From Candidatus Latescibacterota bacterium (lineage in GTDB: Bacteria > Latescibacterota > UBA2968 > GCA-2709665): a stretch of DNA of 64,000 nucleotides. This document shows, piece by piece, positions 14,482 to 41,316 of this stretch. Position 1 is the stretch's first letter. Every line of letters begins with the position of its first letter. The stretch is taken from NCBI GenBank assembly GCA_965226795.1, contig CBDDDZ010000005.1:3008001-3072000 (forward strand), in the 5' to 3' direction. The translations under genes were made by a program, and so were the position numbers. Under the pieces are notes generated by a model. The model worked only from the letters and a program-made list of their open reading frames with translations. It did not search any database and was not told the DNA's origin.

Positions 14482-14575
14482 CCACCGAAGTGAGGGGAGA
14501 TGGGGACGGCTTTGCCGCGGTCCTTCACGACGCGGTATGGGTCGGTCCTTGTTCTGATGGAAGATTCTCGACGTG
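14482..14575 (-). CRISPR. Degenerate hybrid mini-array: partial repeat B, 37-nt spacer, degenerate repeat A'
   Basis: CCACCGAAGTGAGGGGAGAT (14482-14501) is an exact 20-nt match to the trailer repeats of array B; TCCTTGTTCTGATGGAAGATTCTC starts at 14546. Confidence 0.75.
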
Positions 14576-14902: not shown

Positions 14903-14939
14903 GTTTAAATCCTTGTTCTGATAGAAGATCTTCACCGGG
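14903..14939 (-). CRISPR. Isolated repeat A' copy
   Basis: GTTTAAATCCTTGTTCTGATAGAAGATCTTCACCGGG; 33/37 to the copy at 23236. Confidence 0.85.
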
Positions 14940-14940
14940 A

Positions 14941-15126
14941 TTAGCGGGCGCCTGGCGGCGCGTTTTTCAGCCGCTCGTTCGGCGTCGGCTTTGGCCCACA
15001 GGGCCAACTGGGAAAAGGTAGGAACCGGCAGGCCGCCTTGTAGTCGGCAGGAGCAAACGGCGTCCCGTCGGGATGCCAGCCGCGGCCGAAAATCTTTGTG
15101 TACTTTTCTTTAGGTAGGGTAGGCAT
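14941..15126 (-). CDS. WHPDGTPFAP microprotein, copy 1 (frameshifted after DYKA relative to copy 3)
   Basis: RGWHPDGTPFAPADY; the alternate frame continues LPVPTFSQLALWAKADAERAAE, matching copy 3. Confidence 0.7.
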   Translation of the reverse strand: MPTLPKEKYTKIFGRGWHPDGTPFAPADYKAACRFLPFPSWPCGPKPTPNERLKNAPPGAR

Positions 15127-15129
15127 AGA

Positions 15130-15166
15130 GATTCAATCCTTGTACTGATGGAAGATTCTCGCCGGG
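15130..15166 (-). CRISPR. Isolated repeat A' copy
   Basis: GATTCAATCCTTGTACTGATGGAAGATTCTCGCCGGG; 34/37 to the copy at 23236. Confidence 0.85.
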
Positions 15167-15172
15167 TTTATC

Positions 15173-15262
15173 TCAATCGAACCAATCCCAGGGCGTAAAG
15201 TATTTGATTCCAATAACCACCACAAGAATTACAGCAAGCAAGAGTATAAATCCCAAAATCAT
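15173..15262 (-). CDS. 29-aa single-TM peptide between two repeats (below ORF-track cutoff)
   Basis: MILGFILLLAVILVVVIGIKYFTPWDWFD*; AGGGG 5 nt before ATG; fills most of the inter-repeat interval. Confidence 0.65.
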   Translation of the reverse strand: MILGFILLLAVILVVVIGIKYFTPWDWFD

Positions 15263-15287
15263 AGCGGCCCCTATATACCTGTTTTCC

Positions 15288-15324
15288 GTTTCAGCCCTTG
15301 TCCTGATGGAAAATTCCGAGCGGG
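15288..15324 (-). CRISPR. Degenerate repeat A' copy
   Basis: GTTTCAGCCCTTGTCCTGATGGAAAATTCCGAGCGGG; 30/37 to the copy at 23236. Confidence 0.75.
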
Positions 15325-15348
15325 ATTGTGGTAGGGCGACGGCCGCTT

Positions 15349-15900
15349 TTATTCATCTCCTCGGATCTTGGCCAGCGCCTCGCTCGCAGCGTCTGCCATG
15401 AAATCCACAGAGTCCTTAAGATTTTCGTGTATCCATTCGAGATATCTGACCGCCCGTTGCTCTCGAAACTCACCGAGTTGCCGGATGATCGTCTCCCCCA
15501 GACCGGTGCCCAAAGGGTATCGGTCTCTGGCCATGTGCTCGAAAACGCTCACGAGCAGATTCAGCAGGTGTTGGCGAATTTCCTCCGAATCCGGTGAGGG
15601 TCTCCAGACGTAACGCGGGTTTTCCCAGGACACCCACTCGTCTGGTTGACCGGGCCGAACGCGCCGTTCCTGTTCCCAGCCGCCATGGCGCATCACCGGT
15701 CCGATGGGGATGCGATCGCGATCGGGCCGGCGATGTGGATGGTTCGCACAATAGGTGTAGAAGGGGTTCTCTATCGCGATGTCCCTGATCTCGCAATAGG
15801 GCGGTATACTCTCGTCAGCGCGCCGCAACCATTCGCGCTCGCCCCGGTTCGTTCGATTGAACCAACAGGTTCCGCAACAGTCGGATCCTCCGTTGGGCAT
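15349..15900 (-). CDS. Hypothetical Cys/His-rich protein with helical (HEAT-like) C-terminus
   Basis: MPNGGSDCCGTCWFN...YCEIR...YCANHPH; GGAGG RBS. Confidence 0.75.
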   Translation of the reverse strand: MPNGGSDCCGTCWFNRTNRGEREWLRRADESIPPYCEIRDIAIENPFYTYCANHPHRRPDRDRIPIGPVMRHGGWEQERRVRPGQPDEWVSWENPRYVWRPSPDSEEIRQHLLNLLVSVFEHMARDRYPLGTGLGETIIRQLGEFREQRAVRYLEWIHENLKDSVDFMADAASEALAKIRGDE

Positions 15901-16024
15901 CGCTCAGCCCTCCGCCCGGTTGTAACTCCGCAACCTCTCCCGCAACCGGTCATGCAGTAGCGCTCGCACCGTCACATCGTTCGGTCCAATCGAAATCCTC
16001 CGCAACGCATAACATAAAGTCCAT

Positions 16025-16045
16025 TTGTCGCAAGTATTGCGACAA
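16025..16045. promoter_or_regulatory. Inverted-repeat operator, same arms as upstream of the WYL gene
   Basis: TTGTCGCA-agtat-TGCGACAA. Confidence 0.7.
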
Positions 16046-16114
16046 CATTAAAAAAGCTATCGGCTGTTAGCGGGCAGCCGTCAGCCAGAAACAGTGAGAA
16101 AAGGAGCCGGTGTG

Positions 16115-16299
16115 AAGGTGGGGCAGACATTCCTGTCTGCCCTTATCATTGTCCTTCTGTCGCGATGCAGACAGAAGCAAGGCTTGCGCCGTCCTCTTTC
16201 CAGTGGGGAGACGGCGGCGAGTTGCGGCGTGCCCAGACACAGGATTCTGAGGTTTCGGTTTGATGTAAGTGAGCAGACAAGAATGTCTGCTCCACCCTT
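16115..16299. repeat. Inverted pair of REP-like palindromes (REPIN/MITE-like)
   Basis: AAGGTGGGGCAGACATTCCTGTCTGC ... GCAGACAAGAATGTCTGCTCCACCCTT. Confidence 0.6.
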
Positions 16300-16480
16300 A
16301 CAAGCCTTTGTTCGAATTACCGCTTGAGCGCGTCAACAATCTGAGACAAAATGCCTGTACTTGCTTCCACATTCCGAAGCAGCAAGGCGCCACTGTCACC
16401 TGTGTGCCTGCGGCGAGCGATGCTGTCGGCTTTTTTCATTCCATCCTCCTCGTTGAGTAGACAGATGCAGATCCAACCGC

Positions 16481-17214
16481 TCAGAACCGTTCACGGATGG
16501 CCCAGGCCTTGATCAAGTGGTGGGCGATGGCGATGGGTCCAGGCACCGACAGAACTTTGCTCTTGCCGTCGAGGGCCAGCAGCACTTCGCGACGCTCGAA
16601 CCAGTGCGCGTCGGACATCTCCTCATTGTCTATACGAATGGCGGTGGTGACCGCTTCCGCCAGGCAGCCGATCATAAGCGAACAGGGAAACGGCCATGGC
16701 TGCGAGGAGTGGTAGCGTACGTTCTTCACCCCGATACCCGCTTCCTCCATCACTTCGCGCGCCACCACCTCCTCGATCGCTTCCCCCTGATCGACGAAAC
16801 CGGCCAGGGCGGAGTACATGCGCAGCCGCGAAAGGCGACCGTGCGACTGCCCGAGCAGGCAACGGTCGGTGGCGGGGTCCCGGCGGTACGGCAATCCTCG
16901 AAACGCCAGCCCCGACCGTCCGCAACCCGGGCGGCTGCCTCGGGGAAGGGGGACATGTCTACGGCGAAGTGCGCGACCGCGTCCATCAACCCGAGGAAAA
17001 TCGGCTTCGCTCCGGTCGCAAAGGTCCGGATCCGTTGCGTGTGCAGCCAACCAAGCCGCGGTCGCAGGCAGTCGTCGATCAACACTTCGAGATCCCGGAA
17101 GGGCAGGAACCTGCTGCCGGCGGCGGTTTCGGCGCGATGGATCCAGGCTTCGTCCCGACGTTCGCGTTCGGCACGGTCGAGAGGATTGCCGGCGAATGGA
17201 TGCTGGGCATTCAT
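16481..17214 (-). pseudogene. nudC: NAD(+) diphosphatase NudC, internally deleted and frameshifted
   Basis: N-terminal FAGNPLDRAE in one frame; Nudix box YSALAGFVDQGEAIEEVVAREVMEEAG and SQPWPFP in another; zinc-finger segment missing. Confidence 0.8.
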
Positions 17215-17407
17215 GGATTGCGGTTACCGTAGCAGGCCGACGGGATGTAGACGGGGGAGTATCCGCACCTTAGCCGGTACTCTATCACGTGCAACTTCGG
17301 CGGCGCTGGATCACCATCCGGATGTCCAGCGCACCGCCGACCTGATGCGTCAACGTGAATGCAAACAGCCGGATATATCCCGCGTACTTTAGTCAGTTGC
17401 TGTTCCA

Positions 17408-18283
17408 TCAGGTGTCGAACAGGCTGTGCAGCCATGTATCGGCCTCTGGAATGCCGTCGGCGTTAAACACGAACTCCTGGCCGGGGCTGGCGCTCTTGAC
17501 GTAGGCCCACGGACCGTAGCGCTGCCACTGTTTTTTGCGATGATAGCTAAGCATTGGCTGCCCGTCGACGCGACAGAACCAGCGTGGCAGTCTCCAATAC
17601 GACCGGCTGCTCGCTCCGGGTGCGGTCAACATGACTCGGTCATTGGCACCTGAAAAAAGGCCGCCTCCGTTCGTTCGAGTTTCCGTTCCGCCGATGTTGA
17701 GTGTCCGGGTCGCAACGTAAACCGTGTTGTTCGGCGGCCATGATCGTCCATTGGGATGCAAAGGGTTGACGTGGGGATGGTCAGACAGCCAGGGCCGGAC
17801 TGTGCGGGCGCCGGCCGTATCGGTACCCACAGTAACGACCTCGGCCACCTGGAGCCAACCGAATAACCGGTGCACATCAGGAGCGTTCGATGCGTACTGC
17901 CATGTGCCCCCCTTCGCCGGTTCCGCGGCGCGAAACCAACCAAAGAATAGAAAGAGGTCGCCGGGCCCAACACCCTGGTTTTTCAGATGGCGTTGAGCGG
18001 TCTCGGCCTGCCCGAACGCCGCCAGCCAGCCGGGCGAACGCACAAGGGCATTGGCATTCAAATCGGGATCCAGATGACACCGGTCTCGTCCTTTCACTTC
18101 GCCGTTGGTCAAACACTCCACAATTTGGCCGAGAGACGTGTTACGCCACCGAACGTCATTGAATCGCGTCGGACTTCCGGGGTACGGAATCGGTAGGGAC
18201 AGGGCAGTGCCGTCGGGAAAAATGGGGCTTGGCTTGCCGCCATACTTCGCATCGAAACCCTTGCGGCTGAAGACAATCTTCAT
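17408..18283 (-). CDS. Nucleotide-modification-associated domain 3 (Nmad3)-like protein
   Basis: MKIVFSRKGFD...PSPIFPDG.ALSLPIP, HLDPDL, AFGQ, GDLFLFFGWFR, GQEFV; GGAGG RBS. Confidence 0.75.
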   Translation of the reverse strand: MKIVFSRKGFDAKYGGKPSPIFPDGTALSLPIPYPGSPTRFNDVRWRNTSLGQIVECLTNGEVKGRDRCHLDPDLNANALVRSPGWLAAFGQAETAQRHLKNQGVGPGDLFLFFGWFRAAEPAKGGTWQYASNAPDVHRLFGWLQVAEVVTVGTDTAGARTVRPWLSDHPHVNPLHPNGRSWPPNNTVYVATRTLNIGGTETRTNGGGLFSGANDRVMLTAPGASSRSYWRLPRWFCRVDGQPMLSYHRKKQWQRYGPWAYVKSASPGQEFVFNADGIPEADTWLHSLFDT

Positions 18284-18456
18284 TGGTACTCTTCCTCCAT
18301 TGGTCCGGTCAGGTTACCCAAGCTTACAGCAAAGAGAAAGAACCGGCAAGGTCAACGATAACATTCTTGCCAAGGTCCCCAGCAAGTCGTGGGGCGCAAT
18401 TCGGGCAACAGTCCACGCATCCTAAAGCGTTTCATCGATGTAAACGCTCATGACGG

Positions 18457-18493
18457 GTTTCAATCCTTGTTCTGGTGGAAGATTCCCAGCGGG
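18457..18493 (-). CRISPR. Solitary repeat A' copy
   Basis: GTTTCAATCCTTGTTCTGGTGGAAGATTCCCAGCGGG; 34/37 to the copy at 23236. Confidence 0.85.
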
Positions 18494-18686
18494 TTAGGCG
18501 CAACGAATGTGACAGGAGCATGTCGGTCTGGAGGTGTCGAATTGCATAGCAACTTCTGTCCATCGGGAGTCAGAAAATCGCGTCGAGGACGAAATCTACC
18601 CACCACTGCCCACCCGGATCAGCGAGGCTGGAGCAGAGACTTGGGTCTCAAAAGCGATCCGACGGGTTGTTTGTTCGATGATACTC

Positions 18687-19750
18687 TTAACGCTCGTCCG
18701 TCCTGCGTTTAAGTTCGTCGGCAATCCAATCGGCAGCATCGTGACGATTCATGCCAGCGAAGACACATCGAACAGGGAGATTGTAACCTGTTTCTTTTCT
18801 CACATCTCGTATTCTTACACCGTTGTCATCGGACACGATTGTTTCCCAAACGACCTTCACATGGTACTCACGCTCCTGTCCGAAAACGGTTGTGCCAGAG
18901 ATGACTTGGCCGTCAACGATCCTCCCGGCCGCCAATACACCTTTTTTGTTGACATAAGCAAAGACCCGCTGGTCTTCAGCACTTCCTGACAGATTAGTTG
19001 CACCCGTCTCATAGCCGTGAATGGCAATTACCCCCTGATCAAACATCTTGCGATACGCATTTGGGGCGTAGGTTTCGTTCGTATTGAAGATCCAATCGCC
19101 CTGCCACTTTTCTGCCGAAACGTCCTCTCCTTGCGACTGAATCTTTGGCAATGGCGCGATGTCCATCAGGATTTCTGCATCATCGGAATTTGCGTGGAGC
19201 GTGAATGGCACGAAGTTTATCGGCACACCGTATTCATGAAGCCATTTGACTATCCTCAACAAACCCTCATCAGACGCCGGAGCGACGATAATAATCCGGT
19301 GGCCTTGTTGCGCTTTTGGAATGTCCTTCTGATTAAATTCAGGATCGTCGGTTAGCTCTTGAATCCTTTCTAGCAAGGGGACATATGGGCTTCCGCCATG
19401 GCGTAGGGGCCAGTATTCTCGGTCCAGTTTTCTAGATCTTCATAGCTCTTTCCGGTCATTTCAGCAGCATATTCGAGCAGTTGGCCTACCGTCGCTCTAT
19501 CGGACCAGTCCCGCTTTATTTCGACGATGACCAAACGCCCGTCAGCGTCCAACGCCAAAATGTCTCCCATGCGTTTACCGGCAACGGACTGACCAATCAC
19601 CAGAATCTTCTCGGCACCAAACAGTAGATCGGGGTTCCGCGCCATCCAGTTTTCCAGGTTCTTTTCTGTAAGATTCAACTTTGACGCGGGCCGTTCTTCA
19701 TATGATTGAACCGCGGTCTCTTCTCCGTCGCGGATTAGCTTAAATAGCAT
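18687..19750 (-). pseudogene. NucS-like PD-(D/E)XK endonuclease with C-terminal domain; 1-nt frameshift near 19430
   Basis: TEKNLENW, GDILALDADGRLVIVEIKR, QLLEYA; adding one A to an A-run joins ORFs 19370..19765 and 18687..19376. Confidence 0.7.
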
Positions 19751-20078
19751 CGGTGTCCCCTCCATCGGTACGGTTCACCCTCACGCCATATGGGAAACAC
19801 ACAGTCATGCCGCGTATCCGTACGCCGCACAAAGGTTGGATCCCTGTGCGGGTGGGGAAAGACCGGCCAAGCACGGGCGCCGACGTCGTCCGGTCCGCTC
19901 TCCCGACCCAAGTGAGGTGAGATGCTTTTTCCCCGATCACTCTGCGGCGTATCCAAGTGTCGAAAAATGCGACGCGAGCTAACACACCAGCTCGTCGGCG
20001 AACGCATCTTCGATGTCCCGCGTCAACTGCAATCTTGCACACATCGGGCCTTTCACGGCGAGGATTCAAAGGTCCTGA

Positions 20079-21413
20079 TCAGTCTCTACCCGCGTTACTC
20101 TGCAGCGTCTTGTCAATCATCGTGGAGAACACCTGTTGAAACTGCTCGCAGATTTCAGATCGAGCCAGGTTTTGCAGGGGAAAACTCGGACGCCCCTTCA
20201 GACACCTGTCCAAAGTCACGTCGTCAATCCGGCACAAATCAGACCAGAGTTCTTTGCGAGCATTCTCTGTATGGAATGGGGCGACCATGTATTGGAATTG
20301 GACGACCACGCGGTCAGCCTTTATGCTGAAGGTCCACTGCAACAATTCCTTACCGTCTGCCAATGGCAATCTGTCGAGTTGGAACCAGATCTCCGGCGGA
20401 TCGGTATTGCGCGTCGGCATTCGGTTGAAATACGCGACCCTGCGGCCCGATCCTTCGAGTTCGACGTGTTTCCGGTGCGCCCACGCAATCAGTTCCTCGG
20501 CAATTCGAGCACACTCGCAGCCGGCACGGACCCCCAACTCATGCACAAATGAATCCGGATCGACAACCATGCCGCCCTTGAGTGGGGGGACTCGAAACTC
20601 GGCAATGAGAGGCGCGTGGTCGCTCCGGGTGCCCATGACGTTGTGATCGACTCGCAGCCGCGTGCACCGATGCGCGAGTTCCTCCGTGGCATACAGCCAA
20701 TCCAGCTGTGTGCCCGGGTTGCCGCCGAACGTTCGCACGTGGCGGCAGTCGCCGGCACCGCATGGACAATCCGGCATGGTGTCCGGACGATCCTCTGCGA
20801 TGGTAGCGAGATTGACGAGCCCGAGTGATTCGATGGCGCAGAACAGGGCGCGGTATCGAGGCAGTTCGAGCGTGTCAGGACGAGTTGCAGTTGTAATATT
20901 GAAGTCGCCACCCAGAATGACGCGCCTGCCGTCACCCGAGTCAAACAGCGGAATCAGGTCGGCGATAACACGGAACATCCTTGTTTGCGCATAGCCGTCA
21001 TCCATCGCGCCATACACACTCACACAGGTGATAGGGCCGACTTCAGGCACGTGGATTCTAGCAACAATCACGGAACCCGGAAGGCTTCCCAGCATGCTGA
21101 ACCTCGTGGCGCCGTATCGTGTACGTACGGCATCGATCTCCTCTGTTTCCAGGTCACAGGCGAACGCCACAACCGACGATCCCCAGGGCCGCCGGCCTGC
21201 GATCTCGCGGTATACGAAACGGTTACGGGGGATGTCAGACGGAGCAACGCTTTCCTGGAGCAGCATGACGTCAGCCTTCCTCTCCGTTTGAAGGTAACGC
21301 CATGCGTCCTTGCGCTGCTGCGAAGTCCGCTTCCAGTGATCCATGTTCCATGTGCCGATAGACAGGTTTCGCACAACTGGTGTTGAACAGGTCTTCCGGT
21401 CGCCTGCGGTCAT
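20079..21413 (-). CDS. Endonuclease/exonuclease/phosphatase (EEP) family protein with extra C-terminal domain
   Basis: TWNM, LLQES, GGDFN, QLDWLYA, SDHAPL. Confidence 0.85.
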   Translation of the reverse strand: MTAGDRKTCSTPVVRNLSIGTWNMDHWKRTSQQRKDAWRYLQTERKADVMLLQESVAPSDIPRNRFVYREIAGRRPWGSSVVAFACDLETEEIDAVRTRYGATRFSMLGSLPGSVIVARIHVPEVGPITCVSVYGAMDDGYAQTRMFRVIADLIPLFDSGDGRRVILGGDFNITTATRPDTLELPRYRALFCAIESLGLVNLATIAEDRPDTMPDCPCGAGDCRHVRTFGGNPGTQLDWLYATEELAHRCTRLRVDHNVMGTRSDHAPLIAEFRVPPLKGGMVVDPDSFVHELGVRAGCECARIAEELIAWAHRKHVELEGSGRRVAYFNRMPTRNTDPPEIWFQLDRLPLADGKELLQWTFSIKADRVVVQFQYMVAPFHTENARKELWSDLCRIDDVTLDRCLKGRPSFPLQNLARSEICEQFQQVFSTMIDKTLQSNAGRD

Positions 21414-21706
21414 TCAATTCCTCCACTTCGGTCGAGGCATTCTGCAATAGACGGGGCTGTCTTTCGGATCCTCACAGGCCAAATTCCGGTGAATGCATTT
21501 CGGGTTTACTTTCGCTGCCCGCGGACCTGATGTCGGTCCGAAACCGCACGTTTGCCAGGCCAGGAACCTGTGTTCTTACGAATCGCCGCGTCGAACTGAA
21601 TCGCCGTAAAGTATCCGGAGTGCAGGTGCGAAATGTACCTACCGTTTGCCAAACAAAGTGCTGTCAAACCCTCACGAGAGTGCTAAATGGTCCCCGCGGT
21701 CTGCAA

Positions 21707-21816
21707 GTTTCAATCCTCTCCCCCCACCAAAGTGAGGGGAGATTTTCAGAAACAGTTGTCGCCAATCCGTGTAATCTCTGTTTCAATCCTTGTTCTGATG
21801 GAAGATTCCCGACGGT
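21707..21816 (-). CRISPR. Hybrid mini-array: repeat B variant, 36-nt spacer, repeat A' variant
   Basis: GTTTCAATCCTCTCCCCCCACCAAAGTGAGGGGAGAT (21707-21743), spacer 21744-21779, GTTTCAATCCTTGTTCTGATGGAAGATTCCCGACGG from 21780. Confidence 0.88.
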
Positions 21817-21897
21817 GTGTGGAGCGCGAGCGAGGCACTGCTGTTCTGTGGGGTGTGTCTCATGTACGGTTACGACGCGGGGACCCACTATCCTCGG

Positions 21898-22980
21898 TTA
21901 GGCCAGGTTGGCAACGCGGCGCTCGGCGGCGGCGATGTCGGCGGCGCCGTCGAGCACGGTGATCTCCAGGTGGAACTCGCGTGTGGCGCCGGGTTCCAGG
22001 TACTCCAGGGAGTCGTGCCTGCGGTTCCAGGCGCGCCCGAGGGGCGAGCAGTTGCCTGGCTCCACGCCGGTCACGTAGCCGGCGGCGGCGAAGTGCTGCC
22101 ACTGAGTGACCAGCGGCAGCTCGGCAGCCGGCATGCGCCACTGCAGGCCGTACGCCAGCCGGTCGTTGATCAACGCAACGGTCACGTTGCCGTTGGCGTC
22201 CGGCACCGGCCGGTGCACGTATACGTCGTCGCCGGCGCCCGGCTCCGGGGCACGCGCCCGCTCGTACGCTGCGGCATCGACCGGGCGGTCCTGCAGCCAC
22301 TCGGTGCTGAGTTGGCTGTTGACCAGGAACCGGGTACCCTCGTCGAGCAGGGGGAAGCCGGGATTGGTGTGGTACAGCAGCATCAACGGCGAGCGCAACC
22401 CGCCGAGGTTCTCCACTCGGTCGTGGATGCTGATGCGGCGCTCGCCCAACGTAGTGGTGATTTCGCGGCGCAGCTCGAGCGTCGTGCCAAGTGCCACCGC
22501 TTCGCGCATGGTGCCGGCGATGCGCAGGTGGTATTCGTCTCCCTGCCAGCTTCCGCCGGCGCTCACGTCGCGCGCCGGGATGGCCGACAGCCGCCCGTGC
22601 AGGCCCAGTTCCTCGCCTTCCTCCTCCGGGTCGGTTTCGGGATGGCCGACGAAGGTCAGGCCGCAACTGATCAGCAGGCCGCCGAAGAAACTGCGCATCC
22701 AGCCGTAACCGGCGGGCTCGAAGAATGCCGGTCCGACGTCGCCGGTGGCGCTGCGGAAACACAGCGACCGCCCCTGGTAGGTGGCGGCGGCGATGTCCAG
22801 CGCCCGTCCGGGCAGTACCGAGAAGCTCAGCCCGGAGGCGTTGCTCACCTCGATCAATCCGGCGCCGCGCTCGTTGCCCTCGGTCAGCTCGGCGCGGCGA
22901 ACGGCGGCGAGCTGGCTCATATCGCCGACCAACCGCAGCAGCTCCGCCTTCGTGTAGTCGCGTCCAAACAGGTGTGCCAT
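21898..22980 (-). CDS. Aldose 1-epimerase-like (DUF4432) protein
   Basis: VGDMSQLA, GRALDI, FFGGLLISCGL, LGLHGRLS, LLYHTNPGFPL, GVEPGN; GAGGAG RBS. Confidence 0.8.
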   Translation of the reverse strand: MAHLFGRDYTKAELLRLVGDMSQLAAVRRAELTEGNERGAGLIEVSNASGLSFSVLPGRALDIAAATYQGRSLCFRSATGDVGPAFFEPAGYGWMRSFFGGLLISCGLTFVGHPETDPEEEGEELGLHGRLSAIPARDVSAGGSWQGDEYHLRIAGTMREAVALGTTLELRREITTTLGERRISIHDRVENLGGLRSPLMLLYHTNPGFPLLDEGTRFLVNSQLSTEWLQDRPVDAAAYERARAPEPGAGDDVYVHRPVPDANGNVTVALINDRLAYGLQWRMPAAELPLVTQWQHFAAAGYVTGVEPGNCSPLGRAWNRRHDSLEYLEPGATREFHLEITVLDGAADIAAAERRVANLA

Positions 22981-23093
22981 GCTCGCTCTCTCCTCTCGTG
23001 GACGGGGCGGCACCCGGCCAGCGGTCGTGCCAGCGGATGTCGCTGCCGATGCCGCCGGTAGGGCCGATCACCCGCCCCATAATCGCCGCGCCG

Positions 23094-23235
23094 TTACGCC
23101 GGGTGGCTCGCCGGGGGCAACGTGAGCGCGGCCGATCTGTGCTACCGAGGTACAGCCGATGAGCGCCATGGTGCGGCTCATCTCCTCGGCCAGCAGGCTT
23201 ACCTCGTAGCCGACCCCCGCTTCACCGCCGGCGCC
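23094..23235 (-). pseudogene. 3' tail of an FMN-dependent alpha-hydroxy-acid dehydrogenase, cut at a CRISPR repeat
   Basis: GAGGEAGVGYEVSLLAEEMSRTMALIGCTSVAQIGRAHV begins at the repeat border. Confidence 0.7.
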
Positions 23236-23272
23236 GTTTCAATCCTTGTTCTGATGGAAGATTCTCACCGGG
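23236..23272 (-). CRISPR. Repeat A' (reference copy)
   Basis: GTTTCAATCCTTGTTCTGATGGAAGATTCTCACCGGG; first 25 nt identical to repeat A. Confidence 0.9.
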
Positions 23273-23450
23273 TTATCGCGCTCGGCGTTCGGCGGCTCGT
23301 TCGGCATCGGACTCAGCCCAAAACGCCAGCTGAGCGGGGGTGGGGACGGGCAGGCCTGCCTCGCGGTAGTCCTTAGGGGGCAAAAGGCGTCCCGTCGGGG
23401 TGCCACGACTGTGAGAAGGTGTCGGAGTGCTTGTTGGGTGTTTTTGTCAT
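23273..23450 (-). pseudogene. WHPDGTPFAP microprotein, copy 2 (+1 in a homopolymer run)
   Basis: MTKTPNKHSDTFSQSWHPDGTPFAP then frameshift (G5 versus G4 in copy 3); the rest is nearly identical to copy 3. Confidence 0.7.
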
Positions 23451-23455
23451 ACGCA

Positions 23456-26400
23456 GTTTCAATCCTTGTTCTGATGGAAGGGTTCTGACCGGCCGCGGGG
23501 AAGGCGCTCGTTTGGCTATACCCCCAAAACTGTTTCAATCCTTGTTCTGATGGAAGTGTTTCGACCGGAAAAAATCCGAGAGCACCGGAGACAACCGGGG
23601 TTTCAGTTTCAATCCTTGTTCTGATGGAAGTGTTTCGACCGGCTGCCACCCGAGCCTACCGATCCGCCAATACCCGTAACGTTTCAATCCTTGTTCTGAT
23701 GGAAGTGTTTCAACCGGTATATCATACTGGGTCTGGAACAACAACATGGATACCTAGTTTCAATCCTTGTTCTGATGGAAGTGTTTCGACCGGCCTGATC
23801 GCCAGGACACACAAAGACGTCGAGAATCGAGTTTCAATCCTTGTTCTGATGGAAGTGTTTCGACCGGAACCACACCTGCGCGCCGTCCTTGCGGATGGTA
23901 GGGTGTTTCAATCCTTGTTCTGATGGAAGTGTTTCGACCGGAAAAACGACCAGTTGCCTAGATGCTTGGCGCTGATGCGTTTCAATCCTTGTTCTGATGG
24001 AAGTGTTTCGACCGGCCGCGGCGGCCACCGGTGGAAGATAGACCGGTACTTCGGTTTCAATCCTTGTTCTGATGGAAGTGTTTCGACCGGGATTGTGACT
24101 TTTTTGATCGCTCCTGAAGGACAATGTTTCAATCCTTGTTCTGATGGAAGTGTTTCGACCGGTCAATTACTTCATGGCAGTCACAACAAACGACTGGGGT
24201 TTCAATCCTTGTTCTGATGGAAGTGTTTCGACCGGTAACATCTGAGATTTTCTCAGTGTTCCCTCATGTTCGTGTTTCAATCCTTGTTCTGATGGAAGTG
24301 TTTCGACCGGCCAAGCAGCCAGATCATGAGGTCTCCTCTTTCAGATGGTTTCAATCCTTGTTCTGATGGAAGTGTTTCGACCGGCAGCGAGCCCACCGCG
24401 CACCACTGCACGGCGGTGGTACTGTTTCAATCCTTGTTCTGATGGAAGTGTTTCGACCGGTAATCCCCCTTGAAATGCTTCACCTGGGCCTGTAAGGTTT
24501 CAATCCTTGTTCTGATGGAAGTGTTTCGACCGGCCAACCAGTCTATTGTCGTGGGCTCGTCGGGGTCCACGTTTCAATCCTTGTTCTGATGGAAGTGTTT
24601 CGACCGGACGGTGGGCAAGCGCAAGGAAGCGCCGGAAAAGATGTTTCAATCCTTGTTCTGATGGAAGTGTTTCGACCGGTGGTGTCTACTTCGGTTAGGG
24701 TGCCGGTGGTCATCTGGTTTCAATCCTTGTTCTGATGGAAGTGTTTCGACCGGTGCACATCGGCAAGCTTCGCGGCGTTGGCCTGTGAGTTTCAATCCTT
24801 GTTCTGATGGAAGTGTTTCGACCGGCCACCAGAATAGTTGCCCGGCCTTTATCGTCTCGAGAGTTTCAATCCTTGTTCTGATGGAAGTGTTTCGACCGGC
24901 CAGTCTTTCTTGTTCGCAATTAGAACACGGGCTTTTTCGTTTCAATCCTTGTTCTGATGGAAGTGTTTCGACCGGAAAGATCCGTATTGAGTTTGGGCCG
25001 CGGTCGGAAAAGTTTCAATCCTTGTTCTGATGGAAGTGTTTCGACCGGCAAGCTGCAACTCAACTCTTGTCGCTTCGTCCAAAATGTTTCAATCCTTGTT
25101 CTGATGGAAGTGTTTCGACCGGGGTTTTCCGGGGTACAACGACTGACGTCCGGCCGGCCGGTTTCAATCCTTGTTCTGATGGAAGTGTTTCGACCGGGAT
25201 CGAATCTCGATATCTTATAGTCACCGGCCGCTTCAGTTTCAATCCTTGTTCTGATGGAAGTGTTTCGACCGGTGACGATGGAGATTTGCGTAAAGATTTA
25301 AGACATTTCAGTTTCAATCCTTGTTCTGATGGAAGTGTTTCGACCGGTGGGTTCCGGTACTTCGGATATCCGGAGAAGTTGGCTGTTTCAATCCTTGTTC
25401 TGATGGAAGTGTTTCGACCGGCGTGTGGGCCAGCATAACCACGCTTGCCCGGAGTATATGTTTCAATCCTTGTTCTGATGGAAGTGTTTCGACCGGCCTT
25501 GCCGCGCTGGTGTCTATGGTGGCGGCATTTCCATGTTTCAATCCTTGTTCTGATGGAAGTGTTTCGACCGGCGTTGCAAGGCTTTTATTGCCGGGTGTTG
25601 AACCCTCTGTTTCAATCCTTGTTCTGATGGAAGTGTTTCGACCGGCGTAGAAACTTCTTGGCCCACGCCTCATCTTCCCTGCGTTTCAATCCTTGTTCTG
25701 ATGGAAGTGTTTCGACCGGCAGATACACCTATGAACATAGACAAGTAGAGATTACAGTTTCAATCCTTGTTCTGATGGAAGTGTTTCGACCGGTATTAGC
25801 CTCTTGGGCTGCGATGAAGCTATTCTTGTTTCAATCCTTGTTCTGATGGAAGTGTTTCGACCGGGCTGCTGCAGCTATTCTTATACTATCTAGCGGGAAA
25901 AGGTTTCAATCCTTGTTCTGATGGAAGTGTTTCGACCGGTATCATGGCAGACTCACAGCGAGCGGCGAAATATTGTTTCAATCCTTGTTCTGATGGAAGT
26001 GTTTCGACCGGGAACTTTTGGAAAAAGCCGGGGGTAAGGTTGGAATTGTGTTTCAATCCTTGTTCTGATGGAAGTGTTTCGACCGGTCCGGATGGTACTG
26101 GCGGGAACCAGGTTTTGTTTGCCAGTTTCAATCCTTGTTCTGATGGAAGTGTTTCGACCGGCCCGCCGGCAGGGCGTCGTCGGTAGTGATGAGAAGCCCG
26201 TTTCAATCCTTGTTCTGATGGAAGTGTTTCAACCGGAAAATGGCTTGTGCGGCCTTTCGATATTTATATCGTGTTTCAATCCTTGTTCTGATGGAAGTGT
26301 TTCGACCGGAGGGCGGCTCGTGACGTCGATATTTATCTGGGGTGGCTGTTTCAATCCTTGTTCTGATGGAAGTGTTTCGACCGGCCTTGCCGACATTCTC

Positions 26401-29056
26401 GAATGGAGCATTGATATAGTCGTTTCAATCCTTGTTCTGATGGAAGTGTTTCGACCGGTCGCCTAAGCCGGTTTGCGTCTGCAAAAACTCATTACGGTTT
26501 CAATCCTTGTTCTGATGGAAGTGTTTCGACCGGTTAGCCTCCAGCGCCAAATACTCCTCACGAAGATCCGAGTTTCAATCCTTGTTCTGATGGAAGTGTT
26601 TCGACCGGCCGGTTGTGCTCGCGTAGCTGCGCCCGTGATGTGATGGTTTCAATCCTTGTTCTGATGGAAGTGTTTCGACCGGCCCGAAACAAAGAGGCCG
26701 TCACGTTCGCGCGGCTGGTGTTTCAATCCTTGTTCTGATGGAAGTGTTTCGACCGGAGGATGCCGTTGGCCTTTGAAGGCCACTTGGTATCCCGTTTCAA
26801 TCCTTGTTCTGATGGAAGTGTTTCGACCGGCGTGGGGTGTGCGTTTCGCTCCAACAAGCCATATCTGTTTCAATCCTTGTTCTGATGGAAGTGTTTCGAC
26901 CGGCCCCCACCTCACGCACGAGGAAGCCTAAGAAGAAATAGTTTCAATCCTTGTTCTGATGGAAGTGTTTCGACCGGCGGGCTCATGTCTGTATGGCCTG
27001 CGACGGATCAGGTCGTTTCAATCCTTGTTCTGATGGAAGTGTTTCGACCGGAAATTCCCACGCACTCGTTTCCCGGTGCTCATTTTGGTTTCAATCCTTG
27101 TTCTGATGGAAGTGTTTCGACCGGTGATCTAAAGAAATTGCAGGATCAGGTTGCGGCGAAGGAGTTTCAATCCTTGTTCTGATGGAAGTGTTTCGACCGG
27201 GTGCGAAGACAGAACCTCCCAATACCCTACTTGGTGTTTCAATCCTTGTTCTGATGGAAGTGTTTCGACCGGCGGGGAAAAAAGTTAAATGAAATTCCGT
27301 TTGTATTTATGTTTCAATCCTTGTTCTGATGGAAGTGTTTCGACCGGTCGTAACGTGACGGATGCGATATCAATCAAATTGATTAGTTTCAATCCTTGTT
27401 CTGATGGAAGTGTTTCGACCGGTGCACACGGAACGGCTGACGCTTCAGGCTGAACGGAGTTTCAATCCTTGTTCTGATGGAAGTGTTTCGACCGGCGCTG
27501 CAGACGTTCCCGGCTTCAGCGTCGTAGATGATGTTTCAATCCTTGTTCTGATGGAAGTGTTTCGACCGGCGCAAGGGCCATGCCTCGCCGCCCAATAGCG
27601 TGAAAGTTTCAATCCTTGTTCTGATGGAAGTGTTTCGACCGGTCATTGAAAAATTGCACCAAGTCGGGCGTCTGGTCGTGTTTCAATCCTTGTTCTGATG
27701 GAAGTGTTTCGACCGGTGAACACTGGCATGGCGCTTCAGCTTTACCACGAATTGTTTCAATCCTTGTTCTGATGGAAGTGTTTCGACCGGGCCGGAGCCG
27801 GGGGTTTTTTATGCCTCTAATCCCCCGGTTTCAATCCTTGTTCTGATGGAAGTGTTTCGACCGGAGAACCTTGAAATACGCATCAGCTACTGGGTATGGA
27901 AGTTTCAATCCTTGTTCTGATGGAAGTGTTTCGACCGGTCTGGGTGGCACGGGTAATCTCAGGGCGGTCTGGAAGGGGTTTCAATCCTTGTTCTGATGGA
28001 AGTGTTTCGACCGGCCGCATAGATGCCCGCCTGAAGGCTCCCGAACAATGTTTCAATCCTTGTTCTGATGGAAGTGTTTCGACCGGAAATGAAACAACAC
28101 GCAACATGGATCAGTATAATAAAAGTTTCAATCCTTGTTCTGATGGAAGTGTTTCGACCGGTTGTCTCTGTCGGCCCGTTCGTTCTTCAGGTCCTCTTTC
28201 TGTTTCAATCCTTGTTCTGATGGAAGTGTTTCGACCGGTCTGCCAAATTTCGTCTGCATGAAACTTGTCCTCCTAAGAGTTTCAATCCTTGTTCTGATGG
28301 AAGTGTTTCGACCGGGAAACAATCAAACTCACAAGGGAAGTAGACAATGACGTTTCAATCCTTGTTCTGATGGAAGTGTTTCGACCGGGGGGGTGTAAAT
28401 GGAACACTGGGAGGGCGACGAATGAGTTTCAATCCTTGTTCTGATGGAAGTGTTTCGACCGGCAACGTTCGCGCCTCCGCAAAGATCCCTACCGTACGGG
28501 TTTCAATCCTTGTTCTGATGGAAGTGTTTCGACCGGACGTTTCGGGAAGCAGGCGTTAGGACTACCTGAATAAGTTTCAATCCTTGTTCTGATGGAAGTG
28601 TTTCGACCGGTTTCGGGAACGGCAACGCCGGCAACTGTTACGTTTACGTTTCAATCCTTGTTCTGATGGAAGTGTTTCGACCGGTGGCCTGACCATGCAT
28701 TTGAAATGCTCGCCACTCGATGTTTCAATCCTTGTTCTGATGGAAGTGTTTCGACCGGTTATCATGATAGGCTTGCGCCGTTTCCTCAGCTTTTGGGTTT
28801 CAATCCTTGTTCTGATGGAAGTGTTTCGACCGGCTTCCTTTTTTTCTTACGTGATACGTTGGGGTACCGGTGTTTCAATCCTTGTTCTGATGGAAGTGTT
28901 TCGACCGGTACTTAAATCTCAAAGGTATCATCCTATCTCCCCAAAGTTTCAATCCTTGTTCTGATGGAAGTGTTTCGACCGGCACGGGTTTTGGTAGATC
29001 TTGAAGTTGTCCATATGGTGTTTCAATCCTTGTTCTGATGGAAGTGTTTCGACCGG
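23456..29056 (-). CRISPR. CRISPR array A: 76 repeats (37 nt), 75 spacers of about 34-40 nt
   Basis: GTTTCAATCCTTGTTCTGATGGAAGTGTTTCGACCGG on +; ends ATTGAAAC on -; degenerate repeat at 23456 marks the trailer; counted by hand. Confidence 0.98.
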
Positions 29057-29634
29057 CCGAGGTTCTCCACTCGGTCGTGGATGCTGATGCGGCGCTCGCC
29101 CAGCGTAGTGGTGATTTCGCGGCGTAGCTCGAGGGTGGTGCCAAGTGCCACCGCCTCGCGCATGGTGCCGGCGATGCGCAGGCGGTATTGGTCTCCCTGC
29201 CAGCTTCCGCCGGCGCTCACGTCGCGCGCCGGGATGGCGGACAGTCGCCCGTGCAGGCCCAGTTCCTCGCCTTCCTCCTCCGGATCGGTCTCGGGATGGC
29301 CGACGAAGGTCAGGCCGCAACTGATCAGCAGGCCGCCGAAGAAACTGCGCATCCAGCCGTAACCGGCAGGCTCGAAGAATGCCGGGCCGACGTCGCCGGT
29401 GGCGCTGCGGAAACACAGCGACCGCCCCTGGTAGGTGGCGGCAGCGATGTCGAGCGCCCGTCCGGGCAGCACCGAGAAGCTCAGTCCGGAGGCGTTGCTT
29501 ACCTCGATCAATCCGGCGCCGCGCTCGTTGCCCTCGGTCAGCTCCGCACGGCGAACGGCGGCGAGCTGGCTCATGTCGCCGACCAACCGCAGCAGCTCCG
29601 CCTTCGTGTAGTCGCGTCCAAACAGATGCGCCAT
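29057..29634 (-). pseudogene. Truncated second copy of the DUF4432 gene
   Basis: Homologous to 22403-22980; cut exactly at the first repeat of array A. Confidence 0.88.
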
Positions 29635-29689
29635 GCTCGCTCTCTCCTCTCGTGGACGGGGCGGCACCCGCCCCATTGTCGCCGCGCCG

Positions 29690-29830
29690 TTACGCCGGGT
29701 GGCTCGCCGGGGCAACGTGAGCGCGGCCGATCTGTGCTACCGAGGTACAGCCGATGAGCGCCATGGTGCGGCTTATCTCCTCGGCCAGCAGGCTTACCTC
29801 GTAGCCGACCCCCGCTTCACCGCCGGCGCC
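29690..29830 (-). pseudogene. Second copy of the FMN-dependent dehydrogenase 3' tail
   Basis: GAGGEAGV...RTMALIGCTSVAQIGRAHVAPASHPA*. Confidence 0.7.
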
Positions 29831-29867
29831 GTTTCAATCCTTGTTCTGATGGAAGATTCTCACCGGG
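29831..29867 (-). CRISPR. Repeat A' copy
   Basis: Identical to 23236-23272. Confidence 0.9.
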
Positions 29868-30035
29868 TTATCGCGTTCGGCGTTCGGCGGCCTGTTCGGC
29901 ATCGGACTCAGCCCAAAACGCCAGCTGAGCGGGGGTGGGGACGGGCAGGCCTGCCTCGCGGTAGTCCTTAGGGGCAAAAGGCGTCCCGTCGGGGTGCCAA
30001 CCTCGGCAGAAAGTATCTGAGTGCTTGTTGGGCAT
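29868..30035 (-). CDS. WHPDGTPFAP microprotein, copy 3 (intact, 55 aa; below ORF-track cutoff)
   Basis: MPNKHSDTFCRGWHPDGTPFAPKDYREAGLPVPTPAQLAFWAESDAEQAAERRTR*; TAA abuts repeat A'. Confidence 0.75.
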   Translation of the reverse strand: MPNKHSDTFCRGWHPDGTPFAPKDYREAGLPVPTPAQLAFWAESDAEQAAERRTR

Positions 30036-30054
30036 ACACATAATATTCGAAATG

Positions 30055-31477
30055 GTTTCAATCCGCTCCCCCCACCGAAGTGAGGGGAGATCTACCAGTC
30101 AGAGACGCTTTACCAGATGTCATGGGCGTTTCAATCCGCTCCCCCCACCGAAGTGAGGGGAGATCTACCACGTCGACATCAGATCGAAAGCTGTTTTCCT
30201 GTTTCAATCCGCTCCCCCCACCGGAGTGAGGGGAGATCGACGTCTCGGAATCGACGCTGTCGACCTCATACGTGTTTCAATCCGCTCCCCCCACCGGAGT
30301 GAGGGGAGATGTACCCAGTCCCACGCTGTCGTCAGCCACCCTATGTTTCAATCCGCTCCCCCCACCGGAGTGAGGGGAGATGTTGTTTTTGCAGGGCCAG
30401 GACACCCTTGTTATCATTGTTTCAATCCGCTCCCCCCACCGGAGTGAGGGGAGATTCAGCGCACCCCACGACCCGGTAAAATTTCTTACGAGTTTCAATC
30501 CGCTCCCCCCACCGGAGTGAGGGGAGATCACAGGATGATGCCGCCAGGCGCTTTGTAAGCGACGTTTCAATCCGCTCCCCCCACCGGAGTGAGGGGAGAT
30601 CCTTCGGGGCCGCCGATTTGCCGGCTGCGAGTGTCGGGTTTCAATCCGCTCCCCCCACCGGAGTGAGGGGAGATACAGGAAGGGCCCGGGCAAATTGGCA
30701 GGTGGGCATTGTTTCAATCCGCTCCCCCCACCGGAGTGAGGGGAGATCCCCTGGGCGCACTGGCAACAGCGGCGGTGGCTATAACGTTTCAATCCGCTCC
30801 CCCCACCGGAGTGAGGGGAGATTTGCCGAACAACCAGGGTTCCCCCGATCCCCAACAAGTTTCAATCCGCTCCCCCCACCGGAGTGAGGGGAGATCTATA
30901 CGCAGCATTTTCACGTCAGGATGTGCTTTTGTGTTTCAATCCGCTCCCCCCACCGGAGTGAGGGGAGATGGGCTCCCGTACCGTTTCCCGGCCCGCCGTT
31001 TGGGTTTCAATCCGCTCCCCCCACCGGAGTGATGGGAGATGCAGATTTCGTTACGGGGGCCGGTATCTCTTTCAGGGTTTCAATCCGCTCCCCCCACCGG
31101 AGTGAGGGGAGATCAACATATATATAGCTGTTTGCGCCGGGAACACCGCGTTTCAATCCGCTCCCCCCACCGGAGTGAGGGGAGATCTGCCGGGTCCATG
31201 TTGGGTCGTTTGTCGCTTCCAGCAAGTTTCAATCCGCTCCCCCCACCGGAGTGAGGGGAGATCAGGGACGCCGCGCCTACAAGCGCCACGCCATCAGTTT
31301 CAATCCGCTCCCCCCACCGGAGTGAGGGGAGATGTTTCGCTACCCCCCAACCCAAGCTCACCCTCTATGGTTTCAATCCGCTCCCCCCACCGGAGTGAGG
31401 GGAGATAAGTGTCTACAAACGTATTGCGGCGGAGTTCTCTGTTTCAATCCGCTCCCCCCACCGGAGTGAGGGGAGAT
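30055..31477 (-). CRISPR. CRISPR array B (type I-C-like): 20 repeats (37 nt), 19 spacers
   Basis: GTTTCAATCCGCTCCCCCCACCGGAGTGAGGGGAGAT on +; strong hairpin; variant repeats at the 30055 end. Confidence 0.98.
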
Positions 31478-33435: not shown

Positions 33436-33646
33436 CTAGATGATAGATTCGTAGCGAGTCGTGTTCAAAATCGATTTCCCTCAACAGACGATTCCGGAGC
33501 ACCGCCCATTCCGTTTTTCCAACCTGGCATTCAAACAGCGATTTTTGTACTCGAACTCCATAATCCTTGCAGGCCCTCGCCACGCGGCGGAGTCGTTTTT
33601 GTCCGGCCCGGTCAATCGTCGAGACGTCGTACGCGATCAGTTTCAA
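33436..33646 (-). pseudogene. cas2: cas2 5' fragment (IS-interrupted)
   Basis: LIAYDVST...RLRRVARACKDYGVRVQKSLFEC...DSLRIY; probable TTG start at 33646 with GAGGAG RBS. Confidence 0.9.
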
Positions 33647-33684
33647 TCCGCTCTCCTCAAACAGCAAAAAGTGGACACACTGTA

Positions 33685-34746
33685 TTACTTTGGTATGTAC
33701 GGAATATAGTCGGGAATATCGCCGCGAAGATACCGCGCGAGCAACCGGGCTTGAATGCTGAACACCTGTCCCAGACGGACATTTTCCTTGAAAAGGACGT
33801 GCTTTATCTCCGTCTGCTTGCGCCGCTGCCAGGCCTGAATCACTTCCCTCCTGCCACGGTCGGTAAATTCCACGGCGCCGCCGTCTCGCTCGCGAAAGTG
33901 CCCTGGCTCAATCTGTCGCCGATTGATCAGAGTCAACGCCAGGCGCTCCGCCAAACAGGGCCGGAATTCTTCCATCAGATCCAATGCGCACGCCGGTCTT
34001 CCAGCCCGCGTGGCGTGGAGCCATCCGACGAATGGATCCAATCCGGCGGTCGTTAACGCCGCCAAACAGTCGTGGCGTACCAGTGCGTAAATGAACGACA
34101 GCAGACAGTTCACGCGGTCACGAGGAGGACGGCGCGAGCGATTTATGAACCTGAAGTCGTCCCGCTGTTGTTTGAGCATATACTGGAAGGCCGAGAAATA
34201 GACCCTGGCACCGAGACCCTCCATTCCCCTGATGGGGTCAATCGCTTCCCGAAGCCCACATTCTCGGGGCACAGGTTCGGCATTTCCGAGTTGCTGGATC
34301 AGGCGGGCCAATTTACTGGCCGCTCCCGCCAATTCCGCGCGATCCGAATCCGTATCAGCCTCCCGGCCGGACCGCTGCAAATTGGTGCGAGAGTTCTGCA
34401 ATTTCCCAGCAACGAACTGACGGGCAATCCGGGATGCTTCCTCCGGATTGTCCGCCGCCGCGTACTGTGCTCGACGCAACAGATAGCGGGTGTCCCCGCT
34501 GCCCAGAACCTGCGCCAACAGGTACCCATTCTCCGTATGGAAATGAATCGCCACCTGGTGTCGCCAGCATAAGGCCATTGCGGGAGGCGTAACTACGACC
34601 CTTCCGAATGCGCAGATGCTCTCCAGGTGGTGAATAGGCACAGTCAATCGGGTTTGTTTTTCGATCTCGACCCGAAGCGTCAGATGATCCCTGTGTACTA
34701 CGGTGCCAGAGGTCGTCAGATAAAGGGTGTTCTGAATAATGGCCAT
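33685..34746 (-). CDS. cas1: Type I-C Cas1
   Basis: NTLYLTT, VPIHHLESI, RGMEG, RSRRPPRDRVNCLLSFIY, GLDPFVGWLH, ALDLMEEFRP. Confidence 0.96.
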   Translation of the reverse strand: MAIIQNTLYLTTSGTVVHRDHLTLRVEIEKQTRLTVPIHHLESICAFGRVVVTPPAMALCWRHQVAIHFHTENGYLLAQVLGSGDTRYLLRRAQYAAADNPEEASRIARQFVAGKLQNSRTNLQRSGREADTDSDRAELAGAASKLARLIQQLGNAEPVPRECGLREAIDPIRGMEGLGARVYFSAFQYMLKQQRDDFRFINRSRRPPRDRVNCLLSFIYALVRHDCLAALTTAGLDPFVGWLHATRAGRPACALDLMEEFRPCLAERLALTLINRRQIEPGHFRERDGGAVEFTDRGRREVIQAWQRRKQTEIKHVLFKENVRLGQVFSIQARLLARYLRGDIPDYIPYIPK

Positions 34747-34788
34747 GATTTGCGACTGAGCCCCTCGGCCCGCAACAGCCGGGCGAAT

Positions 34789-41293: not shown

Positions 41294-41316
41294 GCTTTTC
41301 TCCAGAGTTATTGCCA

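Follow-up and report, generated by a model that had tools for sequence, protein, structure and literature searches.

In a 64,000-nucleotide (nt) stretch of a Candidatus Latescibacterota genome (assembly GCA_965226795.1, contig CBDDDZ010000005.1, positions 3,008,001 to 3,072,000; hereafter the window), we found that a micro-gene occurring three times between CRISPR repeats is a real and unusual feature: it represents a new family of small proteins whose gene is carried as a cassette bounded by such repeats. The element is promoterless and consists of a repeat, 2–5 nt, an ATG, the frame of a soluble protein of 55–65 amino acids (aa), a stop codon and the next repeat. Judged by its homologues, this new family reaches several phyla. 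The three homologous open reading frames (ORFs) named in a preliminary description were confirmed. All lie on the minus strand, the direction in which both CRISPR arrays of the window (A and B) end in ATTGAAAC, and all are placed between same-strand repeats.

A micro-gene fitted between CRISPR repeats

Our family set comprised 35 copies in 14 genomes, obtained from 30 fetched 20-kb regions and the window, and the same 35 copies were recovered by a protein profile and by a DNA-level hidden Markov model. The intact protein of the window (P0001) had matches in 14 of 61 related genomes, among them 12 of the 14 other genomes of the genus; with a profile built from 70 sequences, 15 of the 168 phylum genomes gave matches, one of which, weak and 14 residues long, was rejected. 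The matching loci belong to Ca. Latescibacterota metagenome-assembled genomes, some of them labelled Gemmatimonadota, and a sponge habitat of these host bacteria is likely. Within the 108-nt core of 28 open copies, the proportion of synonymous differences was 0.64 (pS) compared to 0.27 for nonsynonymous ones (pN), and median omega was 0.28 (240 pairs). Entropy reached 1.29 at third codon positions versus 0.66 and 0.63 at the others, and in-frame stops numbered zero compared to 5–49 in the other five frames. Conserved RNA structure was not found in 13 copies (RNAalifold −1.79 kcal/mol, compensatory pairs 0/8), and a structured non-coding RNA was rejected on the same values. The protein-level selection initially suspected is, thus, borne out by the pS and pN values and the stop-free frame, while the RNA-structure alternative is unsupported; the micro-gene almost certainly codes for protein.

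The residues W, H, D, G, P, D, Y and P of the core are kept across phyla, with synonymous sites near saturation. AlphaFold2 run on a 70-sequence alignment (mean pLDDT 78) predicted a hairpin, a helix at residues 22–27 and another at 35–54, giving a modelled outline of hairpin, short helix, Pro-rich linker and amphipathic helix. The proteins are small and mostly acidic, and hydropathy across 28 copies (mean GRAVY −1.08, best 19-aa Kyte-Doolittle window 0.77) revealed no membrane segment; a type I toxin, that is, a membrane peptide with a hydrophobic transmembrane helix, was rejected on these values. P0001 had no family match in Pfam, PADLOC or NCBIfam, and one of 70 members matched an unnamed PHROGs family (E 0.004). 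The ESM Atlas returned no usable match for P0001 or its homologue P0058, and Foldseek none at E ≤ 0.001 against PDB and BFVD. The best VIA-align match (Z 3.4, root-mean-square deviation 2.6, 42 aligned) was to small-subunit ribosomal chains, which we read as bS18, and none of 48,161 entries reached Z ≥ 5. A hit to D. radiodurans topoisomerase IB in a PDB sequence search (20 residues, domain i-E 0.024) was discarded as a short HPDGTP coincidence. Absent structure matches do not demonstrate a new fold.

The association with repeats is close. A same-strand repeat adjoins all 35 copies, upstream in 28, downstream in 28 and at both ends in 21, supporting the proposal that a previously undescribed gene, selected at the protein level, is lodged among CRISPR repeats. 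An A-type repeat weight matrix found zero sites at threshold outside the window (10.6 million positions, both strands scanned); repeat flanking of the copies is, therefore, not due to chance. Among 87 solo or array-terminal A repeats, 30 have the micro-gene directly behind them. An ATG at +2 to +5 nt follows 26 of these 30 repeats compared to 7 of the 57 others, and the bases between repeat and ATG vary among subfamilies. The repeat 3′ end is also better kept before the micro-gene (0.96 versus 1.98 mismatches in the last 12 nt), with GGA preserved in 24 of 26 repeats before the micro-gene versus 37 of 56 others. Inserts between repeats are ORFs of 161–221 nt in most copies, and in many the stop codon lies 0–1 nt ahead of the next repeat. 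Other genes also begin near repeats (L037:11749–12998 and L042:19182): ZacA, which opens the ZacABC operon, has its ATG 1 nt past one in G006 and G009, and a phospholipid-methyltransferase-like gene has its GTG start 0 nt past an A or B repeat in five genomes.

From this arrangement, the AAGGA of the repeat probably serves as the ribosome-binding site of the micro-gene. The spacing of AAGGA to ATG is 9–12 nt, which is long for a Shine-Dalgarno sequence (usually 5–10 nt) and speaks against this role. As an alternative, Cas6 cleavage, which leaves an 8-nt handle on CRISPR RNAs (crRNAs), would yield a messenger RNA with such a handle. A promoter scan of 14400–23600 gave two promoter-like sites compared to 2.9 by chance, and terminator counts were likewise at chance level. 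Expression from the precursor of crRNA (pre-crRNA) is plausible. One metatranscriptome contig (X13, depth 4) spans the 3′ part of copy 2, with DNA in the library possible, and no contig of run X16 or X17 extends over the micro-ORF; assembled contigs cannot demonstrate expression.

Within the window, copy 3 follows the last array-B repeat, copy 2 the last array-A repeat, and copy 1 lies between two degenerate A-type (A′) repeats, as first described. The ATG of copy 3 is located 19 nt past the array, or 13 nt for an alternative in-frame ATG at 30041 that would extend the 55-aa protein to 57 aa. The start of copy 2 is 5 nt and that of copy 1 is 3 nt past the respective repeat. The predicted TAA placement also held, at 0 nt ahead of an A′ repeat for copies 2 and 3 and 1 nt for copy 1. 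Copies 1 and 2 agree with copy 3 at 125/190 and 158/180 positions, respectively; copies 2 and 3 have unlike N-termini and are otherwise nearly identical. No further copies were found in the 5.4-Mb genome.

Copy 3 is intact and the other two are frameshifted, in agreement with the initial assignment. The frameshift of copy 1 is identical in G013 (184/192 nt identity) and is, therefore, real and inherited. Copy 2, as assembled, contains one surplus G in the run at 23376–23380, giving a putative frameshift. In-frame alleles exist, one in L061 (P0002), on a contig 97% identical to the region, and one on a run X1 contig that lacks one base at 23376 (depth 5.9 of 26.1). L061 (2,667 nt), labelled Tectimicrobiota, is 97% identical to window positions 21700–23520, including the terminal array-A spacer, and is probably mis-binned or the product of recent transfer.

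Copies 2 and 3 are not independent because both belong to one duplication of ~1 kb (22398–23438 and 29052–30032; 96–98% identity over ungapped stretches) that holds a repeat, the micro-ORF and the 5′ part of a DUF4432 gene. The apparent closing of both arrays is, therefore, a single arrangement observed twice, and the claim that the micro-gene always closes arrays was not upheld, as an array end precedes 3 of 35 copies only (two in the window and one in G014). About 5 nt of microhomology mark the point where the second block meets the leader side of array A. The window looks like two island-end alleles in tandem (array B, micro-gene, A′, DUF4432 and array A, micro-gene, A′, DUF4432), although this arrangement may be an assembly chimera.

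Probable cassette shuffling in a repeat-punctuated island

The micro-gene is the most common cassette of a variable island that lies behind the array at the same chromosomal site across the genus, with degenerate repeats separating mostly co-oriented genes. Two or three degenerate repeat types mark the cassette junctions (window 14539–23272; L031–L057, L138 and L139). Cargo genes encode DUF4432, Exo_endo_phos, NucS-like/PDC-S11, Nmad3, ZacABC and GmrSD/HEC-05 and, in addition, PDC-S37/Hhe, UDG-like, SRAP, ADP-ribosylglycohydrolase, peptidase S51 and DUF4126 proteins. Up to six diverged micro-gene copies occur per genome, with three or four in tandem, and at least five subfamilies are retained in the island. 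Comparison between genomes identified the repeats as junctions at which neighbors change: 70 of 353 homology breakpoints are near repeats versus 25.9 expected, or 70 of 255 versus 48.6 under an intergenic null, but the compared genomes are kin, so that these counts overstate significance. Among 105 repeat junctions (50-nt flanks), pairs sharing only the downstream flank numbered 56, only the upstream flank 25 and both 13. The repeat in front of one cassette is of type B in three genomes and of type A in two, and the DUF4432 cassette is found behind differing upstream neighbors in G003, G007, G008 and G013. These patterns suggest that cassettes are very probably shuffled at the repeats. Positions of the window features are given in Table 1.

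Table 1 Features of the island, arrays and cas region in the window.
Feature	Positions	Strand	Remarks
Solo A′ repeat	14539..14575	-	distal island end
Solo A′ repeat	14903..14939	-	downstream of copy 1
Micro-ORF copy 1	14941..15126	-	frameshifted after DY; pseudogene common to G013
Solo A′ repeat	15130..15166	-	upstream of copy 1
Solo A′ repeat	15288..15324	-	
183-aa protein gene	15349..15900	-	cassette; no known family
NUDIX-domain gene piece	16481..17050	-	
Nmad3 gene	17408..18283	-	cassette
Solo A′ repeat	18457..18493	-	upstream of Nmad3
NucS-like / PADLOC PDC-S11 gene	18687..19765	-	cassette; in two ORFs
Degenerate B-type repeat	19887..19923	-	upstream of NucS-like gene
Exo_endo_phos family gene	20079..21413	-	cassette
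Mixed mini-array	21707..21816	-	A′ repeat, 36-nt spacer, B′ repeat
DUF4432 gene	21898..22980	-	cassette; 70% GC
Solo A′ repeat	23236..23272	-	right after copy 2 stop codon; junction to DUF4432 cassette
Micro-ORF copy 2	23273..23450	-	frameshifted; G run 23376–23380
CRISPR array A	23456..29056	-	76 repeats of 37 nt; orphan
Duplicate of 22398–23438	29052..30032		truncated DUF4432, A′ repeat, micro-ORF
Solo A′ repeat	29831..29867	-	right after copy 3 stop codon
Micro-ORF copy 3	29868..30035	-	intact open frame, 55 aa (P0001)
CRISPR array B	30055..31477	-	type I-C, with 20 hairpin repeats; leader past 31477 is AT-rich
DDE transposase (DDE_Tnp_1_4)	31819..33183	+	between array-B leader and cas2
Type I-C cas genes	33431..41320	-	cas5, cas8c, cas7, cas3, cas4, cas1, cas2

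The 183-aa protein is Cys-rich and recurs in the islands of relatives (L035, L037, L040, L042 and L049), its gene often being directly upstream of a repeat and micro-gene unit. Islands of this type are also present in G015, which belongs to another genus and in which no micro-gene was found, and in single-contig genomes that yielded no cas genes. The CRISPR repeats at the junctions have no stable fold (z about +1). The spacer of the mixed mini-array has its sole seed match at an array-A spacer/repeat junction, and further mixed A/B mini-arrays around a short spacer are located at L031:9343–9452 and L046:11019–11116, 12730–12811 and 13880–13977. Comparing the 94 spacers to the rest of this genome gave no full-length match, the best ones extending over 16–20 nt.

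Array A lacks a leader, with its leader side directly abutting the DUF4432 fragment. In relatives, its repeat type accompanies I-B-type systems with Cas6b, and no Cas6 was found in this genome. Nearly all of its repeats are identical, and loss or import was, therefore, probably recent. In G003, an A-type array is broken up by several insertion sequences (L035:18120–20000; L036:1–7883). The gene order of the type I-C operon (cas5-cas8c-cas7-cas3-cas4-cas1-cas2) is unusual, and the transposase separates cas2 from the leader. Upstream of the operon are a WYL regulator (42181–43203) and a repeat family (41952–46405) that is both dispersed and tandem (125-nt period, 44417–44822), with a related copy at 16050–16093.

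Occurrence without detected cas genes and in other phyla

The micro-protein is apparently independent of Cas. The upstream cas modules of carriers differ, being of type I-C in this genome (G000), G013 and G014, of I-B types with Cas6b in G003 and G010 and of a Cas6-myxan type in G001; cas1 is present in 11 of the 14 carriers. G002 and G009, both single-contig and 97% complete, possess one and two intact copies, respectively, and contain no cas1, cas5, cas3, RAMP or Cas6b gene over the cut-off, with class 2 effectors not searched for. Conversely, the same repeat core has 91 matches in G015, which also possesses cas1, cas5 and an island punctuated by repeats, and no micro-gene copy was found there. 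Seed matches at cassette 5′ ends in the fetched loci numbered 4 of 28 compared to 2.1 in shuffles, and the three copies had none of ≥10 nt within the window.

Homologues outside this bacterial family occur in Binatia, Chloroflexota, Dehalococcoidia, Caldilineaceae and relatives, mostly as single copies. The proposed measure, the fraction of copies beside a CRISPR repeat, thus split into two values: 35/35 within the bacterial family and 0/15 for A- or B-type repeats at loci outside it, with other repeat types screened by ATTGAAAC-like ends at 14 of the 15 loci at most. The anticipated counterevidence, homologues mainly away from CRISPR loci, was, therefore, obtained in part, for the 15 outside loci without such a repeat. 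A profile search of 1.84 billion representatives yielded 79 matches, of which 47 with a single matching stretch were kept as family, with context visible for a minority. The other 32 were rejected as multi-stretch occurrences of a W-x-x-D-G word in repeat proteins, and five viral matches of only 10 aa, together with L078, L125–L128 and G067, as chance. Pattern searches and tblastn found no micro-gene in viral contigs or in phage and plasmid records, and a metagenome pattern search was likewise negative. Class-level samples around G062 (1/201) and G063 (1/401) contained the micro-gene in the central genome only, while 2 of 81 relatives of G061 carried it. In a phylogenetic tree, one change suffices to explain the repeat-flanked label (28 versus 5 rows, support 69/88) and a single capture into the island is allowed, but this tree was built from 48 columns, with no star on its key branch.

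The surroundings of several homologues point to a role in conflict. At L073, P0058 lies directly downstream of a prophage MuF-ADP-ribosyltransferase (MuF-ART) gene and before the scaffold gene, on the opposite strand to muf; the locus (L073:4087–8394) is a prophage head module with the MuF-ART and the antisense micro-gene homologue. Other copies have AbiEii (L069) or a tyrosine integrase-like gene (L119) in their vicinity, are fused C-terminally to McrC (P0151) or are fused in frame to the C-terminus of a NucS-like (PDC-S11) protein (L031:11993–13258). For three other fusion types, no named family was found. P0088, P0092 and P0148 may be HhH-glycosylases, and searches found no family for them; the single-sequence model of fusion P0152 (pLDDT 34) is unusable.

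Candidate functions and known counterparts

In the literature consulted, mostly at abstract level, neither the micro-protein family nor genes starting against a CRISPR repeat were described. As an overall explanation, we lean slightly toward a Cas-independent accessory defense or immunity protein that would pair with or inhibit a nuclease or toxin and is carried on a repeat-bounded cassette. A single capture from the mobile pool would have brought the gene, as an oversized ‘spacer’, into an ancestor. Recombination between repeats, which have a 25-nt 3′ core in common, may then have duplicated, moved and deleted the micro-gene and other cassettes, resembling attC recombination in integrons minus the integrase. 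Genes would be read from a transcript running through from the cas or leader side, with the AAGGA of the repeat as ribosome-binding site. The protein itself would be a small binding module in conflicts with phages or other mobile elements, most likely as a nuclease or toxin partner or inhibitor, and several diverged paralogues per genome would widen its range. We give about even chances to the step that makes it a Cas-independent defense accessory.

Several observations weigh against this explanation. Broken copies account for 8 of 35, including two of three in the window, so that selection on single copies is weak, and several copies lack a stop and run into the repeat. The homologues were first collected by protein search, which favors a protein-level signal. 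Six copies of the Caldilineaceae group have housekeeping genes around them at a fixed locus, no defense gene neighbors the L075 copy, and the fusions may have arisen accidentally when stops were lost.

A specific version of the favored explanation, which we consider unlikely, is an immunity protein that inhibits phage-delivered MuF-type ARTs and forms a poly-immunity array. It would account for the position of P0058, for the diverged and tandem copies and for the ADP-ribosylglycohydrolase cassette in the island, and it has a precedent in MuF toxin immunity proteins (PMC11699363, PMC5576092) such as Bsi, which blocks a MuF-like ART (PMC11699363). The L073 homologue occupies a Bsi-like slot just downstream of the toxin gene. 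Unlike Bsi, it is encoded on the opposite strand and at one locus, the likeness being of position and not derived from sequence comparison. Such a MuF-ART neighbor exists at 1 of 15 outside loci only, no ART is annotated beside the other copies examined, and the negative viral, phage and plasmid searches also argue against this version.

Similarly improbable is a hitch-hiker: the gene would be small and mobile, with a function unrelated to its setting, and would multiply because repeat-bounded units duplicate easily. At most, its translation would keep ribosomes on the read-through RNA and couple to the next cassette, a role also known for integron leader ORFs. The broken copies, variable termini, mosaic copies and lack of a detected copy in G015 fit this proposal, as do the many stops just ahead of the next repeat and the ZacA starts 1 nt behind it. 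Conservation of core residues across phyla, however, exceeds the need of a coupling peptide, and the subfamilies are kept.

A Cas modulator, which would be made from pre-crRNA and adjust interference or adaptation by binding Cascade, Cas6 or Cas1-Cas2, had been suggested initially and is unlikely. The position behind arrays, the tight coupling to the repeat 3′ end, the small and mostly acidic protein and the frequency of cas1 among carriers are compatible with it, but the micro-gene neighbors unlike cas systems, is intact in G002 and G009, in which no cas genes were found, was not found in cas-bearing G015 and occurs in other phyla without these repeats. The other initial suggestion, a toxin guarding the array that a Cascade-bound guide represses and that Cas loss or inhibition releases, was not borne out and is highly improbable: array-end positions in this genome and the nearby mixed mini-array agree with it, but the gene persists intact where no cas genes were found and was not found in G015, lacks its own upstream promoter (ATG 2–5 nt from the repeat), shows 5′-end seed matches near expectation and is not hydrophobic (maximum 0.77). 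CreTA/CrePA CRISPR-repressed toxin-antitoxins, in which toxins need Cascade-mediated repression of their own promoter (PMC8730458; 10.1101/2024.01.05.574328), likewise combine a small gene with degenerate repeats at a type I locus. They differ from the micro-gene, which is intact without cas, has no separate promoter and has no matching guide among those found; judged by sequence, tests of CreTA/CrePA membership failed for both Cas-dependent persistence and guide seed match.

Other repeat-associated systems are related to the favored explanation in different ways, with crlRNAs (10.1101/2024.10.29.618823) among the closest known kinds. Standalone repeats (SRUs), mini-arrays and cargo hotspots have been reported for CRISPR-cas loci, with SRUs proposed as recombination targets (Shmakov et al., 10.1101/2023.03.03.530964). 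Shared features are degenerate solo repeats near the cas locus, as found here, and variable defense or toxin-antitoxin cargo. In the SRU case, the unit acts as a guide RNA in promoter repression, with cargo outside the mini-array. The micro-gene islands instead contain whole genes between repeats, many repeats per island, an ATG against the repeat and no guide target found; a search for spacer-length inserts partly complementary to a cas or cargo promoter gave no target above chance. ORF-bearing DNA exactly between two CRISPR repeats is known from the SiL-E1 pseudo-spacer of Sulfolobus islandicus LAL14/1 (PMC3718332), which represents one plasmid remnant of 1.9 kb in a single strain, whereas the micro-gene forms a conserved multi-copy family that purifying selection maintains throughout a genus.

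Sedentary chromosomal integrons are anti-phage cassette banks with a smallest defense protein of 64 aa (10.1101/2024.07.02.601686). The island shares their co-oriented, compact, promoterless and defense-rich units in varying order between genomes, but CRISPR repeats mark its junctions, where integrons have attC sites. The IntI model (TIGR02249) remained under the cut-off in five of five genomes tested, with controls also lacking a match over the cut-off, and other tyrosine recombinases are >100 kb from the island in G000. The micro-gene unit works in the manner of integron cassettes, yet it is apparently not one of them.

We also entertain, as a possible but doubtful extension, that CRISPR repeats were co-opted into an integron-like gene bank storing immunity or inhibitor proteins as ‘protein spacers’. 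The repeats would then act as recombination sites, possibly used by Cas1, and supply ribosome-binding sites, Cas6 or Cas5d, where present, would cut the long transcript into single-gene messenger RNAs, and the micro-gene would be a selected, diversifying family that adds a protein-level memory of past conflicts to the nucleic-acid memory held in the array.

Spacers normally store memory and do not code. In this island, the slot of a spacer is filled by a conserved protein gene, which probably draws its translation signal from the repeat and appears to spread from repeat to repeat together with known and candidate defense systems. CRISPR trailers may, thus, be an equivalent, without an integrase, of sedentary integrons, and the latter have proven to be a source of new anti-phage genes (10.1101/2024.07.02.601686). 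The island supplies candidates in the micro-protein, the 183-aa protein and other family-less cassettes, and it makes two questions testable: whether ribosome binding can be provided by a CRISPR repeat and whether units of gene size are moved from repeat to repeat by Cas1 or RecA.

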